Origin: Naegleria gruberi
Taxonomy: Eukaryota
DNA length: 8,532 bases
Strand: one strand, 5' to 3'
NCBI GenBank assembly: GCA_000004985.1
Contig: GG739064.1
The translations under genes were made by a program, and so were the position numbers. Shown here in pieces: positions 1-8,532 of the stretch. Every line of letters begins with the position of its first letter. The first letter of the stretch is position 1. Under the pieces are notes generated by a model. It saw only the letters and a program-made list of their open reading frames with translations. It was not told where the DNA came from and ran no database searches.

Positions 1-145
1 GGAAAGAACCATTGAAGTTGGTGCAGAAGCTGGTTCTAATGCTCAATTAGATCGAGCTGTTGATTTGAATGTAGCCACTAAAAGAAGAGCATCAAGTGTT
101 AAAACTCCAAAATCTCCAGTCGAAGAAGGAATGGATACTGTTTAA
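1..145 (+). CDS. 3' end of an upstream gene; frame with codons at 2,5,8.. reads ...ERTIEVGAEAGSNAQLDRAVDLNVATKRRASSVKTPKSPVEEGMDTV* (stop TAA 143-145); product unknown
   Basis: Open frame from window edge to TAA at 143-145 with yeast-like codons (AGA, GCT, GGT, CCA); below ORF-track length cut-off so not listed; AATAAA overlaps the stop. Only 48 codons visible, so coding status is inferred. Confidence 0.4.
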   Translation, partial: ERTIEVGAEAGSNAQLDRAVDLNVATKRRASSVKTPKSPVEEGMDTV

Positions 146-149
146 TAAA
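144..149 (+). promoter_or_regulatory. AATAAA polyadenylation-signal-like hexamer overlapping the stop codon of the upstream + gene
   Basis: Literal AATAAA at 144-149; the convergent minus-strand gene ends 44 bp away (stop 189-191), implying very short or overlapping 3' UTRs. Confidence 0.3.
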
Positions 150-188
150 GCAATTCTTTTTTGAATAATTAATTATTGAACTAGTTAT

Positions 189-603
189 TTATTTGTGAAC
201 TGTCAAATCTTGATGAATGATATGAATTTTTACAAGTAATTGTCTCAAACAATCCATTGACAATTCCTTTTCCATTTCTATATATGTGAAACAGCCCAAC
301 TTTTCAGCTAGTTTCTCTCCCTGTTCTGTACTCAAAGGAAGTCTATCTTCCAATTTATGTTGAGTTGATAGTAGGGCGTCTCTCTTATCAGCATTATTGC
401 CAATCAGAACGATTGGAACGGAATCTGATATGACACTTCTTAAATCCTTCACCCACAAAGGCAATTCATTCAATAAATAATTTTCTGAAACGTCCACTGT
501 ATCAATAACCAATAAAAAGCCATGATGAACATGTGACTTGTAACAAATATGCAACAAATTCTTATTCTGTTCCAACTCGTGTGAATCATCAACTCCAAAA
601 TCA
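189..603 (-). CDS. Exon 2 of the Ras/Rab-fold GTPase-like protein (…SDFGVDDSHELEQNKNLLHICYKSHVHHGFLLVIDTVDVSENYLLNELPLWVKDLRSVISDSVPIVLIGNNADKRDALLSTQHKLEDRLPLSTEQGEKLAEKLGCFTYIEMEKELSMDCLRQLLVKIHIIHQDLTVHK*)
   Basis: Collinear match to the Ras/Rab core: 'YxxxxHGFLLVID(T)' corresponds to 'YYRGAHGFLLVYDIT', 'VPIVLIGNNAD' to 'VPIMLVGNKCD' (G4 NKxD becomes NNAD), 'EQGEKLAEKLGCFTYIEMEK' to 'EEGEALAKELGIPFLETSAK' (G5 SAK becomes MEK); stop TAA at 191-189. The 'M' at 638 in the ORF track is a TTG codon. Confidence 0.6.
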
Positions 604-650
604 CTTTCATTTTCAATTAATTTCCTCAATTTTCTCAAATATCTACTTAC
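604..650 (-). other. Putative 47-nt spliceosomal intron (GTAAGT...AG, phase 2) joining the two ORF frames of the GTPase-like gene; alternative explanation is a frameshift/pseudogene
   Basis: Donor gtaagt at 650->645; of all downstream AGs only those leaving exon start at 633, 624 or 603 restore the frame of ORF 189..638; 603 gives a plausible 47-nt intron with a TTAAT branch-like element about 13 nt before the AG. The acceptor (aatgaaag|T) is weak and no TACTAAC is present, so this is uncertain. Confidence 0.35.
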
Positions 651-1009
651 GAAAATCCAATAAACACATTCTCACCCATAAATTCCTGTTCCAATCTCAT
701 AGCTTGAAAAACCTCTTGATTTGTAATCCTACTCAAAAAGTCAATTCTTGATTTTTTGCATTTCCCAAAACAAGCCCAAGATAACGGTTCATAATCACTT
801 GTTTTTGGAATTTTATCCTCCAAAACTGAAACTTTTTCAATATTTGCCATTCGGAAGAAGTGATGATCATTATTTTCCTCATCGTGATGATGATGATGAA
901 TTGGTTTTCGTAAGGTTTCTAATAGAAGTTTATGCTTGTGATGATGCTGTTGAACATCAACAAGATCTTGCTGAATGATTTTGCCAACTGCTGAAAGTTC
1001 AGAAAACAT
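651..1009 (-). CDS. Exon 1 of a Ras/Rab-fold small-GTPase-like protein with a His-rich N-terminal extension (MFSELSAVGKIIQQDLVDVQQHHHKHK...PIHHHHHDEENNDHH...MANIEKVSVLEDKIPKTSD...FMGENVFIGFS)
   Basis: ATG at 1009-1007 (minus) in aaaaaaaATG context; ORF 647..1009 in track; 'KVSVLEDKIPKTS' aligns to the beta1/P-loop 'KIVLLGDSGVGKS' but with both Gly replaced (E, P); exon ends at 651 immediately before GTAAGT (650..645 on minus), which overlaps the in-frame TAA. Confidence 0.55.
884..899 (-). repeat. (CAT)4CAC trinucleotide microsatellite encoding His5 inside the GTPase-like gene's N-terminal extension
   Basis: Plus strand gtgatgatgatgatga at 884-899; a second His cluster (HHHKHK) lies at about 930-950. 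Confidence 0.8.
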
Positions 1010-1559
1010 TTTTTTTCAAAGTTCTCAAAAATCAGTTAGTTTTTTGAAATAGTTTACAATAAATCAAAGACTACGGTTTGTTAATTGTAAATTATTAAAT
1101 AAAGAACATTCACAAATAATACAATAACACCTCAATATTCAAAACACCAGCTTCAACATTCAAAGCAATCAAATCGAAACAACTTCCAATCAAAATTTCC
1201 ATTCCGAGCAGAAATTCGAACAACCAGCTTCGAACTTCCACTGAACATTGCCATCACTCATTGTAATCCGTCATCTCATTCTCGTTCCACCACATTCAAT
1301 CAATTACCTCGGAAAGACTTTCAAAATTGATCTCTTTCACATTCAAGAAATTTTTCAACTCGAATTTTCTTCTGCGCAACAAACTTGTTTTTTAAGCTCT
1401 TGATTACGGCGCTGATTTAAAAAGATTTGCGCCAACGATTTGAATTTTTACAACTTAAAAAAAAAATCACAAAAGTTTGGAAAGCCTTGCTCGTGCATAA
1501 ACTTTTTTTGATCAAAACAAAAACTACACACTAATTTCCTCCTCACACTCCCGAAAAAG
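1010..1559. promoter_or_regulatory. Divergent intergenic or promoter region shared by the minus-strand GTPase-like gene and the + strand PB1 gene; contains an A10 tract (1457-1466) and two copies of an ACCAGCTTC[A/G]AAC motif (1146-1161, 1223-1238)
   Basis: No ORF of note; both flanking genes point away from it; T8 (1011-1018) directly abuts the minus-strand ATG; the poly(dA:dT) tract and repeated motif were seen directly. Confidence 0.5.
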
Positions 1560-2094
1560 ATGACAACCTCAAGACAAGCTCCAGTGACCAAGATTAGAGT
1601 TTATTACAAATCACTTTCTAATCCACCATCTAGAAATCAAGATCCACAAGAAGAAGTGCAATTAAAGTTTGTTTATACTAACTTGAAATATGCTCCTCAT
1701 GAATTGACATGGAAGAATTTCCGTTCCGATCTTCAAGTTCAATTGGCCAAGCATTTGGGAAAGAGTGTCAGTACACTTGATTCTGTTGTTTCCTTTATTT
1801 ACAATGATCAAGAATTTGAAATTGAATCAACTGATGATTCAGCCTTTTTGAGTCAAGTATTGCAATCCAATACTTTGGATCAACGTTTGGATGATATTAT
1901 TGTCTTGATGAGTCCAAAGCTTTTGAATAGAAAGCAACTTCCATTGATGGATACTAGTGAACCATTGCACGTTATGGAACTCGTTGATGAAGGTGACAAG
2001 TATAAGAAGACTATCACTGTTGGTTTGCATCAACATGGTAAACTCTATGTTAGATTAATGAATGGTGTTACTGTTTCCAAGTTATACTTTTTCA
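1560..2094 (+). CDS. 5' part (178 codons) of a gene encoding an N-terminal PB1-type ubiquitin-fold domain followed by a second beta-grasp-like segment; continues into the N gap
   Basis: ATG in gaaaaagATG context; uninterrupted ORF with strongly yeast-like optimal codons (TTG, AGA, GGT, CCA, CAA, GAA, GCT); 'KIRVYY..' (beta1 Lys) plus 'SFIYNDQEFEIESTDDSAFLSQVL' matching the PB1 OPCA motif Y.DEDGD.V.I.SDEEL; second block 'KKTITVGLHQHGKLYVRLMNGVTVSKLYF' looks ubiquitin/RA-like. Family assignment is by eye only. Confidence 0.7.
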
Positions 2095-5000
2095 NNNNNN
2101 NNNNNNNNNNNNNNNNNNNNNNNNNNNNNNNNNNNNNNNNNNNNNNNNNNNNNNNNNNNNNNNNNNNNNNNNNNNNNNNNNNNNNNNNNNNNNNNNNNNN
2201 NNNNNNNNNNNNNNNNNNNNNNNNNNNNNNNNNNNNNNNNNNNNNNNNNNNNNNNNNNNNNNNNNNNNNNNNNNNNNNNNNNNNNNNNNNNNNNNNNNNN
2301 NNNNNNNNNNNNNNNNNNNNNNNNNNNNNNNNNNNNNNNNNNNNNNNNNNNNNNNNNNNNNNNNNNNNNNNNNNNNNNNNNNNNNNNNNNNNNNNNNNNN
2401 NNNNNNNNNNNNNNNNNNNNNNNNNNNNNNNNNNNNNNNNNNNNNNNNNNNNNNNNNNNNNNNNNNNNNNNNNNNNNNNNNNNNNNNNNNNNNNNNNNNN
2501 NNNNNNNNNNNNNNNNNNNNNNNNNNNNNNNNNNNNNNNNNNNNNNNNNNNNNNNNNNNNNNNNNNNNNNNNNNNNNNNNNNNNNNNNNNNNNNNNNNNN
2601 NNNNNNNNNNNNNNNNNNNNNNNNNNNNNNNNNNNNNNNNNNNNNNNNNNNNNNNNNNNNNNNNNNNNNNNNNNNNNNNNNNNNNNNNNNNNNNNNNNNN
2701 NNNNNNNNNNNNNNNNNNNNNNNNNNNNNNNNNNNNNNNNNNNNNNNNNNNNNNNNNNNNNNNNNNNNNNNNNNNNNNNNNNNNNNNNNNNNNNNNNNNN
2801 NNNNNNNNNNNNNNNNNNNNNNNNNNNNNNNNNNNNNNNNNNNNNNNNNNNNNNNNNNNNNNNNNNNNNNNNNNNNNNNNNNNNNNNNNNNNNNNNNNNN
2901 NNNNNNNNNNNNNNNNNNNNNNNNNNNNNNNNNNNNNNNNNNNNNNNNNNNNNNNNNNNNNNNNNNNNNNNNNNNNNNNNNNNNNNNNNNNNNNNNNNNN
3001 NNNNNNNNNNNNNNNNNNNNNNNNNNNNNNNNNNNNNNNNNNNNNNNNNNNNNNNNNNNNNNNNNNNNNNNNNNNNNNNNNNNNNNNNNNNNNNNNNNNN
3101 NNNNNNNNNNNNNNNNNNNNNNNNNNNNNNNNNNNNNNNNNNNNNNNNNNNNNNNNNNNNNNNNNNNNNNNNNNNNNNNNNNNNNNNNNNNNNNNNNNNN
3201 NNNNNNNNNNNNNNNNNNNNNNNNNNNNNNNNNNNNNNNNNNNNNNNNNNNNNNNNNNNNNNNNNNNNNNNNNNNNNNNNNNNNNNNNNNNNNNNNNNNN
3301 NNNNNNNNNNNNNNNNNNNNNNNNNNNNNNNNNNNNNNNNNNNNNNNNNNNNNNNNNNNNNNNNNNNNNNNNNNNNNNNNNNNNNNNNNNNNNNNNNNNN
3401 NNNNNNNNNNNNNNNNNNNNNNNNNNNNNNNNNNNNNNNNNNNNNNNNNNNNNNNNNNNNNNNNNNNNNNNNNNNNNNNNNNNNNNNNNNNNNNNNNNNN
3501 NNNNNNNNNNNNNNNNNNNNNNNNNNNNNNNNNNNNNNNNNNNNNNNNNNNNNNNNNNNNNNNNNNNNNNNNNNNNNNNNNNNNNNNNNNNNNNNNNNNN
3601 NNNNNNNNNNNNNNNNNNNNNNNNNNNNNNNNNNNNNNNNNNNNNNNNNNNNNNNNNNNNNNNNNNNNNNNNNNNNNNNNNNNNNNNNNNNNNNNNNNNN
3701 NNNNNNNNNNNNNNNNNNNNNNNNNNNNNNNNNNNNNNNNNNNNNNNNNNNNNNNNNNNNNNNNNNNNNNNNNNNNNNNNNNNNNNNNNNNNNNNNNNNN
3801 NNNNNNNNNNNNNNNNNNNNNNNNNNNNNNNNNNNNNNNNNNNNNNNNNNNNNNNNNNNNNNNNNNNNNNNNNNNNNNNNNNNNNNNNNNNNNNNNNNNN
3901 NNNNNNNNNNNNNNNNNNNNNNNNNNNNNNNNNNNNNNNNNNNNNNNNNNNNNNNNNNNNNNNNNNNNNNNNNNNNNNNNNNNNNNNNNNNNNNNNNNNN
4001 NNNNNNNNNNNNNNNNNNNNNNNNNNNNNNNNNNNNNNNNNNNNNNNNNNNNNNNNNNNNNNNNNNNNNNNNNNNNNNNNNNNNNNNNNNNNNNNNNNNN
4101 NNNNNNNNNNNNNNNNNNNNNNNNNNNNNNNNNNNNNNNNNNNNNNNNNNNNNNNNNNNNNNNNNNNNNNNNNNNNNNNNNNNNNNNNNNNNNNNNNNNN
4201 NNNNNNNNNNNNNNNNNNNNNNNNNNNNNNNNNNNNNNNNNNNNNNNNNNNNNNNNNNNNNNNNNNNNNNNNNNNNNNNNNNNNNNNNNNNNNNNNNNNN
4301 NNNNNNNNNNNNNNNNNNNNNNNNNNNNNNNNNNNNNNNNNNNNNNNNNNNNNNNNNNNNNNNNNNNNNNNNNNNNNNNNNNNNNNNNNNNNNNNNNNNN
4401 NNNNNNNNNNNNNNNNNNNNNNNNNNNNNNNNNNNNNNNNNNNNNNNNNNNNNNNNNNNNNNNNNNNNNNNNNNNNNNNNNNNNNNNNNNNNNNNNNNNN
4501 NNNNNNNNNNNNNNNNNNNNNNNNNNNNNNNNNNNNNNNNNNNNNNNNNNNNNNNNNNNNNNNNNNNNNNNNNNNNNNNNNNNNNNNNNNNNNNNNNNNN
4601 NNNNNNNNNNNNNNNNNNNNNNNNNNNNNNNNNNNNNNNNNNNNNNNNNNNNNNNNNNNNNNNNNNNNNNNNNNNNNNNNNNNNNNNNNNNNNNNNNNNN
4701 NNNNNNNNNNNNNNNNNNNNNNNNNNNNNNNNNNNNNNNNNNNNNNNNNNNNNNNNNNNNNNNNNNNNNNNNNNNNNNNNNNNNNNNNNNNNNNNNNNNN
4801 NNNNNNNNNNNNNNNNNNNNNNNNNNNNNNNNNNNNNNNNNNNNNNNNNNNNNNNNNNNNNNNNNNNNNNNNNNNNNNNNNNNNNNNNNNNNNNNNNNNN
4901 NNNNNNNNNNNNNNNNNNNNNNNNNNNNNNNNNNNNNNNNNNNNNNNNNNNNNNNNNNNNNNNNNNNNNNNNNNNNNNNNNNNNNNNNNNNNNNNNNNNN

Positions 5001-6707
5001 NNNNNNNNNNNNNNNNNNNNNNNNNNNNNNNNNNNNNNNNNNNNNNNNNNNNNNNNNNNNNNNNNNNNNNNNNNNNNNNNNNNNNNNNNNNNNNNNNNNN
5101 NNNNNNNNNNNNNNNNNNNNNNNNNNNNNNNNNNNNNNNNNNNNNNNNNNNNNNNNNNNNNNNNNNNNNNNNNNNNNNNNNNNNNNNNNNNNNNNNNNNN
5201 NNNNNNNNNNNNNNNNNNNNNNNNNNNNNNNNNNNNNNNNNNNNNNNNNNNNNNNNNNNNNNNNNNNNNNNNNNNNNNNNNNNNNNNNNNNNNNNNNNNN
5301 NNNNNNNNNNNNNNNNNNNNNNNNNNNNNNNNNNNNNNNNNNNNNNNNNNNNNNNNNNNNNNNNNNNNNNNNNNNNNNNNNNNNNNNNNNNNNNNNNNNN
5401 NNNNNNNNNNNNNNNNNNNNNNNNNNNNNNNNNNNNNNNNNNNNNNNNNNNNNNNNNNNNNNNNNNNNNNNNNNNNNNNNNNNNNNNNNNNNNNNNNNNN
5501 NNNNNNNNNNNNNNNNNNNNNNNNNNNNNNNNNNNNNNNNNNNNNNNNNNNNNNNNNNNNNNNNNNNNNNNNNNNNNNNNNNNNNNNNNNNNNNNNNNNN
5601 NNNNNNNNNNNNNNNNNNNNNNNNNNNNNNNNNNNNNNNNNNNNNNNNNNNNNNNNNNNNNNNNNNNNNNNNNNNNNNNNNNNNNNNNNNNNNNNNNNNN
5701 NNNNNNNNNNNNNNNNNNNNNNNNNNNNNNNNNNNNNNNNNNNNNNNNNNNNNNNNNNNNNNNNNNNNNNNNNNNNNNNNNNNNNNNNNNNNNNNNNNNN
5801 NNNNNNNNNNNNNNNNNNNNNNNNNNNNNNNNNNNNNNNNNNNNNNNNNNNNNNNNNNNNNNNNNNNNNNNNNNNNNNNNNNNNNNNNNNNNNNNNNNNN
5901 NNNNNNNNNNNNNNNNNNNNNNNNNNNNNNNNNNNNNNNNNNNNNNNNNNNNNNNNNNNNNNNNNNNNNNNNNNNNNNNNNNNNNNNNNNNNNNNNNNNN
6001 NNNNNNNNNNNNNNNNNNNNNNNNNNNNNNNNNNNNNNNNNNNNNNNNNNNNNNNNNNNNNNNNNNNNNNNNNNNNNNNNNNNNNNNNNNNNNNNNNNNN
6101 NNNNNNNNNNNNNNNNNNNNNNNNNNNNNNNNNNNNNNNNNNNNNNNNNNNNNNNNNNNNNNNNNNNNNNNNNNNNNNNNNNNNNNNNNNNNNNNNNNNN
6201 NNNNNNNNNNNNNNNNNNNNNNNNNNNNNNNNNNNNNNNNNNNNNNNNNNNNNNNNNNNNNNNNNNNNNNNNNNNNNNNNNNNNNNNNNNNNNNNNNNNN
6301 NNNNNNNNNNNNNNNNNNNNNNNNNNNNNNNNNNNNNNNNNNNNNNNNNNNNNNNNNNNNNNNNNNNNNNNNNNNNNNNNNNNNNNNNNNNNNNNNNNNN
6401 NNNNNNNNNNNNNNNNNNNNNNNNNNNNNNNNNNNNNNNNNNNNNNNNNNNNNNNNNNNNNNNNNNNNNNNNNNNNNNNNNNNNNNNNNNNNNNNNNNNN
6501 NNNNNNNNNNNNNNNNNNNNNNNNNNNNNNNNNNNNNNNNNNNNNNNNNNNNNNNNNNNNNNNNNNNNNNNNNNNNNNNNNNNNNNNNNNNNNNNNNNNN
6601 NNNNNNNNNNNNNNNNNNNNNNNNNNNNNNNNNNNNNNNNNNNNNNNNNNNNNNNNNNNNNNNNNNNNNNNNNNNNNNNNNNNNNNNNNNNNNNNNNNNN
6701 NNNNNNN
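2095..6707. other. Run of 4,613 N (assembly gap or masked block); no sequence information
   Basis: Literal n characters; ORF-track entries 1560..6734, 2062..6759 and 2092..7119 are X-translation artefacts across it. Confidence 1.
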
Positions 6708-7055
6708 GTTGATTGGATTCTACGTAGGAAATGATATTAAATGGTTGTCTGACAATTAAATTTCCATAACATTGAGGTCCGAAATATAAAGTATGTCCAT
6801 CATTCAATTTTCTGAATAATTTTACAATATCCATGTGAAAATTGTAATCTTTAGAATAAGTTTGTTGGGAAATCTTCTCCATTTCTGCCATCAAATCAAC
6901 ATGAATATTATAGAGAGGTGAATTTTTGGTTGCTTCCCTAAACACAAATAATGGAAGAGTCTTTCGAATAGTTTCGATTGTTTGCGTAAAGATATTCTCC
7001 GAGAAGGGAATACTCTCAACACATGATCTAACAGATTCCACAGGAACAGGAGTAC
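6708..7055 (-). CDS. Exon 2 (partial, continues into the gap) of a secreted protein: G|TPVPVESVRSCVESIPFSENIFTQTIETIRKTLPLFVFREATKNSPLYNIHVDLMAEMEKISQQTYSKDYNFHMDIVKLFRKLNDGHTLYFGPQCYGNLIVRQPFNIISYVESNQ...; family not recognised
   Basis: Long open frame on minus strand emerging from the gap; frame is joined to the signal-peptide exon only by the first AG after the branch-like site (exon starts at 7055, phase 1). The track's 'M' at 7119 is a TTG directly after a TAA. Confidence 0.55.
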
Positions 7056-7151
7056 CTTTACCATATCCCAACCAATGAAGAAATAATATTGTGAAATTGT
7101 GAAATAAATTGATGATCAATTAGTGATGTGAAAAAAATCAAAACCACTCAC
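7056..7151 (-). other. 96-nt intron of the secreted-protein gene (GTGAGT donor at 7151->7146, CACTAAT branch-like element at 7125->7119, first downstream AG at 7057-7056)
   Basis: Exon 1 is 112 nt (37 codons + 1); no AG occurs between the donor and 7057; the AG at 7057-7056 is the only nearby one giving the required phase (exon 2 start position congruent to 2 mod 3). Confidence 0.5.
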
Positions 7152-7449: not shown

Positions 7450-7953
7450 TTATTTCTGTATTTCTTTTAAAATAATCTTTCCAATCGATTTGGGAAAGTC
7501 AATTCTTAAACACTTGTCGTTATAATAGCTTATTCTTTCCAAATTGGGCATTTGTGATACAAGATTCGAAACTCCAATCTCTTCTATTGCTGTATAATTA
7601 ACAACTAGCTCAGTAATCGAACTGAATTTCAATAAATGTTCTCCAAAATCATTGTAAATTCCATTCTTTTTAAATATTTTCAAGTTTTTAAGCAGTTCAG
7701 GTTTTAAATATGAAAATACTTTTGGTGTCCAATGACCATTCTCAAAAGTAAGTTCTTCCAGTTGACCATTTGGAATGAAAATATGTCTGAATATCAAGTT
7801 TATATTTCCTATTCTAAATCTGCCGAAAAAATACTTGATGAATTCACATTCCGAACCGAATAGTTTCTCTTCAAATTGGAGAAAGGATAGAATATCCTTA
7901 GTAACTTCTGAAGGAATCTCTCGATAGAGAAAATCAACTTGATATTCAGACAT
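7450..7953 (-). CDS. 167-aa protein, MSEYQVDFLYREIPSEVTKDILSFLQFEE... ; N-terminal segment weakly resembles an F-box (L..EIP.EV...ILSFL), remainder unassigned
   Basis: ORF 7450..7974 in track; real ATG at 7953-7951 in aataaaaaaATG context (the track's 'M' at 7974 is TTG); TAA at 7452-7450; codon usage is low-bias (many ATA, CTA, CTG). Confidence 0.5.
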   Translation of the reverse strand: MSEYQVDFLYREIPSEVTKDILSFLQFEEKLFGSECEFIKYFFGRFRIGNINLIFRHIFIPNGQLEELTFENGHWTPKVFSYLKPELLKNLKIFKKNGIYNDFGEHLLKFSSITELVVNYTAIEEIGVSNLVSQMPNLERISYYNDKCLRIDFPKSIGKIILKEIQK

Positions 7954-8073
7954 TTTTTTATTTGAAATAGTCAACAGTTCAACAATTTAATCTTTGCAGT
8001 TCTCAATTGATTTAATTCCTCCATTTATTATTGCTGATATTTATGTCTTAATGAATAATGGAAAATGACAGAA

Positions 8074-8177: not shown

Positions 8178-8532
8178 TCATTTTGATTCCTGTTCCAGAC
8201 TTTTAATGTAATGAATTGCATTTGGAATTCCTTGTAGAGCTGCTTTTTTCATCCAGAAAATTGCATGATTAACATCCACCAAAGTGCCCTCGCCTTTCAA
8301 TAACATGTTTCCAACATAATATTGACAAATTGCATGACCATTCATTGCTCCACTCATAAATAATTTAAAGGATTCAGTATAATCTTGAAGACAGCCCATT
8401 CCCCTATCGTACATTGTTCCTGCATTGTATTGAGCTTCTGCATGATTTCGTGTAGCTGCCATTAAAAAGTATTTCAAAGCCCAATGGATAGTTCACTTCA
8501 ACTCCTCTACCTGATAAATACATAACTCCAAC
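8178..8532 (-). CDS. Sel1-like repeat (SLR/TPR-like) protein, 3' part, carrying an apparent +1 frameshift at 8480-8482; possibly a pseudogene or sequencing error
   Basis: ORF 8178..8477 gives consecutive Sel1-type repeats (AATRNHAEAQYNAGTMYDRGMGCLQDYTESFKLF / MSGAMNGHAICQYYVGNMLLKGEGTLVDVNHAIFWMKKAALQGIPNAIHY); upstream of an in-frame TGA (8495-8493) the repeat continues in another frame (8532->8479: VGVMYLSGRGVEVNYPLG); deleting one G of the GGG run restores ...GVEVNYPLALKYFLMAATRNHAEAQYNAG... Confidence 0.6.

Follow-up and report, generated by a model that had tools for sequence, protein, structure and literature searches.

Our study of an unplaced, AT-rich scaffold of Naegleria gruberi (8,532 bp, about 32% GC; this whole stretch is called the window hereafter) suggests that the gene on its minus strand at 1009..189 encodes a former Rho-family GTPase that has lost its nucleotide-binding motifs. 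We call its 257-aa product the Rac-like protein. Judging from sequence comparison and structure prediction, it is fairly probable that this protein is a Rho-derived, nucleotide-free pseudoGTPase of the class i type, which would work as a constitutive interaction module and not as a switch. Class i pseudoGTPases neither bind nor hydrolyze nucleotides (PMC12490416). The case is built on significant similarity to Rho proteins in the C-terminal half, on the degeneration of the motifs that would contact the nucleotide, and on a pattern of selection that bypasses the pocket.

Rho descent and degenerate nucleotide-binding motifs

The similarity of the Rac-like protein to small GTPases is far above chance. 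The Pfam Ras family (PF00071) matches it with E=7e-7 and 29.4 bits (cutoff 21.6), in a partial alignment of residues 146-230 on model positions 72-141 of 162; the same threshold is passed by the homolog P0003 and not by the paralog encoded on metagenome contig L001. Searches of the PDB sequences with phmmer returned almost exclusively Rho-family matches, the best being TC10, Rho1, RhoA and Rac/ROP, with Rnd proteins found too. A comparison of the profile of the protein's own family with a Rho/Ras profile by hhalign gave a probability of 97% (E=5e-11) and paired residues 111-239 with residues 49-170 of RhoA, and the part aligned by HMMER with a Rho profile is residues 130-244 only. In an unguided AlphaFold2 (AF2) model, whose multiple sequence alignment (MSA) held no Rho information for the N-terminal half, residues 145-257 have a predicted local distance difference test (pLDDT) of 83-95 and follow the order beta4-alpha3-beta5-short helix-alpha4-beta6-alpha5; the best 20 PDB matches of this model in Foldseek are Rac, ROP, RhoU, RhoD, Rnd and Cdc42. 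An earlier note on this DNA, written from the letters alone, had recognized the small-GTPase fold by eye in strings such as FLLVID (149-154) and VPIVLIGNNAD (182-192), and these searches bear it out. Its further claim that the whole G domain is collinear is backed statistically for the part that starts near residue 111 in hhalign, or 130 in HMMER, and has no such backing at residues 54-126, which have no significant match.

Rho-family proteins carry about 13 extra residues between beta5 and alpha4, the Rho insert, which is helical and a structural hallmark of the family. This insert is kept in the Rac-like protein: the span from GNNAD to KLG (beta5 to alpha4), counted from alignments, is 36 aa long, versus 37 in RhoA and 24 in H-Ras, and both AF2 models place a helix at 191-199. 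The product is 100% identical, end to end, to the database entry XP_002668440.1 (EFC35696.1, NAEGRDRAFT_76647, UniProt D2W5F5), described as 'predicted protein [Naegleria gruberi]'. Herman et al. 2021 (BMC Biol, PMC8296547; Additional file 10, Table S8) list this accession under 'Rac' in their N. gruberi sheet, with no corrected model, pseudogene flag, extra domain, or ortholog outside Heterolobosea, and do not include it in the column of one-to-one orthologs in N. fowleri. Their supplementary text puts the Rho family of N. gruberi at more than 80 genes, and several are flagged as pseudogenes. Our literature search found neither the accession nor the locus tag of the gene in any main text. By its sequence, the Rac-like protein is a highly diverged member of the Rho/Rac family by descent, already catalogued without comment on its motifs. 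The affinity to Ras/Rab proposed in the earlier note, which could not assign a family, gives way to this one: the best matches in sequence and structure are Rho-family proteins, the insert is kept, and Table S8 lists the protein as 'Rac' (PMC8296547). The features of the G domain on which the following paragraphs draw are these:

231..575, minus strand: Rho-homologous core with statistical support, residues 130-244 (alpha2, beta4, alpha3, beta5, insert, alpha4, beta6 and the start of alpha5)
342..386, minus strand: Rho-insert region, residues 193-207
594..652, minus strand: G3 remnant SDFG, residues 120-123, split by the intron
387..398, minus strand: G4 remnant NNAD, residues 189-192 (canonical [NT]KxD)
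264..275, minus strand: G5 remnant MEKE, residues 230-233 (canonical SAK)
276..341, minus strand: most conserved block, alpha4-beta6 LPLSTEQGEKLAEKLGCFTYIE, residues 208-229

Other exons might have restored canonical G1, G3 and G4 motifs, an outcome that the earlier note had named as fatal to its reading. We looked for them and can rule them out, because a six-frame scan of window positions 1..1500 finds no GxxxxGK[ST], DxxG[QHE] or [NT]KxD. The protein itself has no G1 of the form GxxxxGK[S/T], the candidates for its remnant being LEDKIPKT and GKCKKSRI, and it has neither the catalytic Gln nor the DxxG of a small GTPase. In the G3 remnant, hhalign pairs D121 with the G3 Asp (the DFGV register, versus SDFGV), and both D121 and G123 are lost in the closest homolog (SLTV; SLTVG). 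G4 has kept N189 and D192 and lost its Lys. The earlier statement that every catalytic motif is altered is right in that no canonical G1, G3, G4 or G5 is left, and goes too far for these two surviving residues of G4. Across four homologs G4 reads NNAD, TSLG, INTK and IGLE; none of the four columns is invariant in G4, nor in G5, and in P0003, P0004 and P0005 the G3 and G5 residues are unrelated. Variation at the motif positions is, as far as sequences can tell, the signature expected of a pseudoGTPase.

Homologs, the N-terminal half and competing explanations

Searches for protein homologs, an exhaustive scan of representative sequences and a scan of Joint Genome Institute (JGI) metagenomes leave a family consisting of P0001-P0005 only. 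The exhaustive HMMER scan covered 1.84 billion representatives and returned four family members, and all remaining matches were proteins with Rho or Rab domains in tandem. L006 and L007, from the metagenomes, encode a canonical Rac and a canonical Ras/Rap. Invariant columns in all four homologs compared make up 12 of the 15 positions of alpha4 and four of the seven of beta6, and a near-invariant block of 19 residues, PLS[TR]EQGEKLAEK[LI][GQ]C[FC]TY, uses different synonymous codons in each homolog. Pairwise synonymous differences (pS) among homologs are 0.59-0.77, mostly saturated, versus 0.29-0.45 for nonsynonymous ones (pN). The open reading frame (ORF) and its phase-2 intron are intact in homologs with saturated synonymous sites, and exon 1 differs from its allele at L005, which comes from an environmental strain and is 98-99% identical, by 4 synonymous and 2 nonsynonymous changes. 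Because the alpha4-beta6 block is near-invariant despite saturated synonymous change, selection must act on the protein, and the comparisons among homologs show that this purifying selection is concentrated on alpha4-beta6 and alpha5 and bypasses the nucleotide pocket.

The gene is probably a far-diverged paralog that arose in the Rho/Rac expansion of Naegleria. It would have kept the scaffold of a Rho-type G domain and lost the residues for phosphate, Mg2+ and guanine. Its N-terminal half would still provide beta1-alpha1-beta2-beta3, with a P-loop remnant at residues 82-89, and the protein as a whole would bind no nucleotide; partners would be engaged through the conserved alpha4/beta6/alpha5 face and the MFSELSxVG N-terminus, not through the switch regions. 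The C-terminus (...HQDLTVHK) has no CAAX box and no Cys among its last 10 residues, and the homologs also lack a CAAX box. The Rac-like protein would thus be cytosolic or soluble, because it offers no site for prenylation. Class i pseudoGTPases combine a G-domain fold with degenerate motifs: the loss of motifs is seen here, and the AF2 models are confident of the fold for the C-terminal half only. It is conceivable, if on balance doubtful, that the MFSELS.../PLSREQGEKLAEKLGCFTY proteins as a whole make up a Naegleria-restricted family of stand-alone, Rac-derived, nucleotide-free pseudoGTPases with a helical N-terminal extension, acting as constitutive adaptors through the alpha4/beta6/alpha5 face (the 'allosteric lobe'). 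Such a family would represent an independent and recent origin of class i from a Rho ancestor, with intermediate homologs surviving.

The N-terminal half admits two placements of the P-loop:

800..823, minus strand: P-loop candidate A, residues 63-70, LEDKIPKT (the EDKIPKTS of the earlier note is 64-71)
743..766, minus strand: P-loop candidate B, residues 82-89, GKCKKSRI, preceded by the beta1-like PLSWACF (75-81) and followed by the alpha1-like DFLSRITNQ

Register A is chosen by MAFFT when the full-length protein is aligned with Rho and Rab domains, at the cost of some 11 inserted residues ahead of beta3; register B is chosen for residues 72-257. The L001 paralog has a 5-residue deletion inside the 'P-loop' of register A. 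Candidate B pairs gap-free with FSFGLIGENCREGNLFLTRMS of the paralog, a sequence at canonical distance from beta3, and the paralog, ungapped over this region, presents a strand-loop-helix KFSFGLIGENCREGNLFLTRMSGSF at near-canonical spacing to a beta2-beta3-like hairpin VQVSMKYMDMQTNLSLV. Under register B, switch I is about 8 residues short and the Thr that serves as Mg2+ ligand is absent. An AF2 model guided by a register B MSA reaches a predicted template modeling score (pTM) of 0.79, with pLDDT of 49-78 in the N-terminal half, and places beta1 at 76-82 and alpha1 at 85-96 with pLDDT of about 73-78. As its MSA imposes the fold, this model speaks for feasibility and is no proof, so that its placement of beta1 and alpha1 is suggestive only. 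The paralog alignment, the paralog's deletion in A and the guided model lead us to prefer register B: the P-loop remnant is probably at 82-89, and EDKIPKTS, which the earlier note took for the P-loop, probably lies in the wrong place. Neither register is aligned by HMMER or hhalign (the alignment of the latter upstream of about residue 130 is of low confidence), and under either of them the P-loop is non-canonical and not conserved, its equivalent in the L001 paralog being GENCREGN.

A metagenomic protein of 163 aa, P0007, resembles this same region. It is built from three repeats in tandem, each some 53 aa long, and every one of them aligns gap-free, at about 33% identity, with residues 72-120 of the Rac-like protein (nt 651-796, minus strand; SWxxFGxCKxSxIxxLxRI...), which correspond to its beta1/P-loop/alpha1/beta2-beta3-like part. 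The pairwise E is 4e-7 and the library E 6.6e-6; chance and real homology are both possible.

Several observations weigh against the idea of a nucleotide-free pseudoGTPase. Neither HMMER nor hhalign finds a G domain to which residues 54-126 are significantly similar, unguided AF2 leaves residues 35-122 below a pLDDT of 50 and without strands, and the complete fold appears only when a Rho-guided MSA imposes it. N189 and D192 of G4 are retained, and both P-loop candidates combine Lys/Arg with Ser/Thr (PKT; KKS). With these residues, the protein might still bind nucleotide weakly or non-canonically. The family is tiny (five sequences) and fast-evolving, and the published table gives no ortholog of it in N. 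fowleri. Finally, the interaction surface and any partner of the Rac-like protein are what we purely infer.

These points might be accommodated by other scenarios. If only the C-terminal half were derived from a G domain, residues 1-126 would be unrelated sequence fused to a Rac fragment and would have no G-domain fold, and P-loop and DxxG would have been misread; the unaligned or low-confidence stretch at 54-126 in HMMER and hhalign, the low-confidence helices that unguided AF2 builds in the N-terminal half, and the two incompatible P-loop registers given by MAFFT would then be expected. Such a fusion seems very unlikely to us, since beta4-beta6 alone would be deprived of the central strands beta1 and beta3 and, from general knowledge of the fold, would need a replacement for them. 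Moreover, the strand-loop-helix of the L001 paralog has canonical spacing to its beta2-beta3-like hairpin, the overall length is collinear with RhoA, and the guided AF2 model (pTM 0.79) gives the N-terminal half a pLDDT of 49-78. The residues surviving in G4, together with the basic and hydroxyl residues in both P-loop candidates (LEDKIPKT; GKCKKSRI), might instead mean that nucleotide is still bound in a non-canonical pocket. The protein would be a loaded, hydrolysis-dead atypical Rho like Rnd or RhoH, or one of altered specificity, locked on, for which the Rnd1 and Rnd3 found among the structural matches are precedents within the Rho family. We give this a low probability: Rnd, RhoH and RhoBTB are generally known to have intact G1, G4 and G5, all of which are broken here, and the surviving residues are kept neither in P0003, P0004 and P0005 (TSLG, INTK, IGLE) nor in the L001 paralog (GENCREGN). 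The shortened switch I of register B, with its missing Mg2+ ligand, also argues against it.

The gene might also be a decaying and functionally dead copy, a relic of a lineage-specific Rho/Rac expansion that drifts to a pseudogene. N. gruberi does have more than 80 Rho-family genes with several flagged as pseudogenes (PMC8296547), a microhomology deletion has removed 55 aa from the reference allele, Table S8 gives no one-to-one ortholog in N. fowleri (PMC8296547), only five family sequences turned up among the billions searched, and the gene lies on an unplaced scaffold of 8.5 kb, more than half of it N. Yet a dead copy would hardly belong to a family in which ORF and phase-2 intron are intact while synonymous sites are saturated, in which pN is well below pS, and in which a 19-residue block is almost invariant in protein with codons differing in each homolog; the curated Table S8 carries no pseudogene flag for it either (PMC8296547). 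We therefore regard decay as unlikely and retain the Rho-derived, nucleotide-free pseudoGTPase as the preferred explanation.

Gene model, N-terminal extension and surroundings

The gene for the Rac-like protein has two exons, spliced into a coding sequence of 774 nt, and its product begins with an extension that precedes the G domain:

651..1009, minus strand: exon 1, with the ATG at 1009..1007, codons 1-119 and 2 nt of codon 120; it matches the XP_002668440.1 model
604..650, minus strand: intron of 47 nt, GTAAGT...AG, phase 2
189..603, minus strand: exon 2, residues 120/121-257 and the stop TAA at 191..189; homologs P0003, P0004 and P0005
851..1009, minus strand: N-terminal extension, residues 1-53, a MFSELSxVGxI start followed by His-rich low complexity
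896..898, minus strand: deletion junction at codon 38, 165 nt (55 aa) in-frame, versus L005 138-302, inside a run of CAT codons

The ORF of exon 1 reads through to a TAA within the GTAAGT donor, and the intron runs GTAAGTAG...AATGAAAG. The 47-nt intron at 604..650 and the product of about 257 aa had been predicted in the earlier note; the spliced model equals XP_002668440.1 exactly, and all strings that the note quoted, MEK (230-232) among them, are located in the protein at the places it implied. The paralog on L001 has a 48-nt GTAAGT..AG intron of the same position and phase, and the intron of the L005 allele is the same as that of the window gene. For these two reasons the intron at 650..604 is supported, by sequence comparison, as real.

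The extension is indeed His-rich, as noted before, with 11 His in the first 53 residues (HHHKHK at 22-27, HHHHH at 38-42). Of the extension, the L001 paralog conserves the initial 11 residues (MFSELSAVGKI, in the paralog MFSELSSVGNI) and not the His runs. Residues 2-34 are predicted by AF2 to be helical, with a pLDDT of about 57-63, and Pfam searches with the N-terminal extensions of the Rac-like protein, of P0002 and of the L001 paralog gave sub-threshold noise only. At the deletion junction, the extra segment of L005 has the microhomology ATTCAT at both of its ends, and the missing 55 aa have a counterpart in the L001 paralog (FMERSERIDEIK versus FLERNKKIGEIQ). Because the paralog keeps this homologous segment, the longer form should be ancestral and the window allele a deletion derivative, although the difference of 165 nt could alternatively be an assembly collapse. 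The potential divalent-metal-binding tail of the earlier note is what we do not recover: a conserved metal-binding role of the His residues was rejected, because their runs are absent from the L001 paralog and because strains differ at this very place by an indel of 55 aa. The tail has the look of a low-complexity tract prone to slippage, embedded in a helical extension.

Over half of the scaffold, the 4.6 kb at 2095..6707, consists of N. Downstream of the Rac-like gene, on the plus strand at 2-145, lies the 3' end of a convergent neighbor (...KRRASSVKTPKSPVEEGMDTV*) with its stop about 45 nt from that of the Rac-like gene; Pfam gives no match for it, and the homologs on L001-L003 have no counterpart of it beside them. 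We compared gene neighborhoods as a synteny check that might tell orthologs from paralogs, and the genes adjoining the homologs on L001, L002 and L003 differ from the neighbor in the window. ORFs are broken off at both edges of the N run (1560..2094 on the plus strand, beginning MTTSRQAPVTK..., and 6708..7119 on the minus strand), neither with a significant Pfam match. On the minus strand at 8178-8477, an ORF of 99 aa has two Sel1 repeats (PF08238, E=5.9e-16) and probably belongs, as one exon, to a larger gene with Sel1 repeats; another of 174 aa at 7450-7974, also minus, has no Pfam match and looks, by eye, leucine-rich-repeat-like.

Two of the metagenomic loci deserve mention. L001 and L002, both from run ERR1078381, carry the same paralog gene (P0004) and different downstream genes, which points to duplication of the locus, to haplotypes or to a chimeric contig. 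On L004, the exon-2-like ORF P0005 is preceded, within 1-230, by ...KVFDMLLHELKYFSGIFHMLEKNIKLSLTGSVSIKK in another frame and then GTAAG; this stretch resembles the alpha1-beta2-beta3 end of exon 1 and has an in-frame stop a few codons further upstream, so that this homolog may be a pseudogene or carry an extra intron.

Relation to known GTPases and pseudoGTPases

The canonical Rac and Rho proteins (Rac1 of N. fowleri, PDB 5vcu; human RhoA, Rac1 and TC10; plant ROPs) share with the Rac-like protein the sequence and profile homology from alpha2 to alpha5 and the Rho insert, and the canonical Rac encoded at L006 has the alpha4 sequence STEQGEKLA in common with it. They differ from it by their GxxxxGK[ST], DxxG, NKxD, SAK and CAAX motifs, all missing in the Rac-like protein, whose switch I is shortened, whose N-terminal half has diverged beyond detection, and which begins with some 53 additional aa (about 108 ancestrally). 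One annotation outcome follows: XP_002668440.1 should be left out when functional Rac switches are counted. The practical value is modest; the gene is one of more than 80 Rho-family genes of N. gruberi, already listed as 'Rac' and with no ortholog in the pathogen N. fowleri.

The non-cycling members of the Rho family, Rnd1, Rnd3/RhoE, RhoH and RhoBTB, are closer in kind, and Rnd1 and Rnd3 are among the matches. Rnd, RhoH and RhoBTB retain P-loop and NKxD intact and carry GTP constitutively, whereas the Rac-like protein has lost the binding motifs themselves and has no BTB or other extra domain. RhoBTB-type proteins are present in Naegleria (PMC8296547). Degeneration of the kind seen here is not unique in N. 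gruberi: XP_002679688.1, another 'Rac' of Table S8 (PMC8296547), can be aligned over the C-terminal half too, at 23% identity with a pairwise E of 5e-6, and likewise has degenerate G4 (THAN) and G5 (EMDA) and a His-containing N-terminus. Unlike the Rac-like protein, it is much longer, has Q-rich low-complexity regions and stands, as a distant relative, outside the MFSELS.../PLSREQGEKLAEKLGCFTY family.

PseudoGTPases are a small and recently defined class, of which most known examples are ancient. The class i members CENP-M, p190RhoGAP (pG1/pG2) and AAGAB (psGD) resemble the Rac-like protein in having a G-domain scaffold with degenerate G1-G5 and a presumed nucleotide-free role in interaction. 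The earlier note had likened its motifs to those of CENP-M and the dynein light intermediate chain; the loss of motifs is of the pseudoGTPase type, as it said, and neither protein is among the best 60 matches, which gives no sign of a specific relationship. For class i as a whole, no specific sequence relationship appears beyond a sub-threshold match of P0003 to RhoGAP_pG1_pG2 (E=0.11), and our literature search found no paper linking Naegleria with pseudoGTPases. AAGAB binds its partners via the face opposite the nucleotide pocket (PMC12490416), and the conserved face of the Rac-like family is also remote from the pocket. The Rac-like pseudoGTPase, if it is one, arose independently of these proteins, from Rac. 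A young pseudoGTPase of this descent, with homologs in graded states, would then show which parts of the scaffold are selected after binding is lost, here alpha4-beta6 and alpha5.

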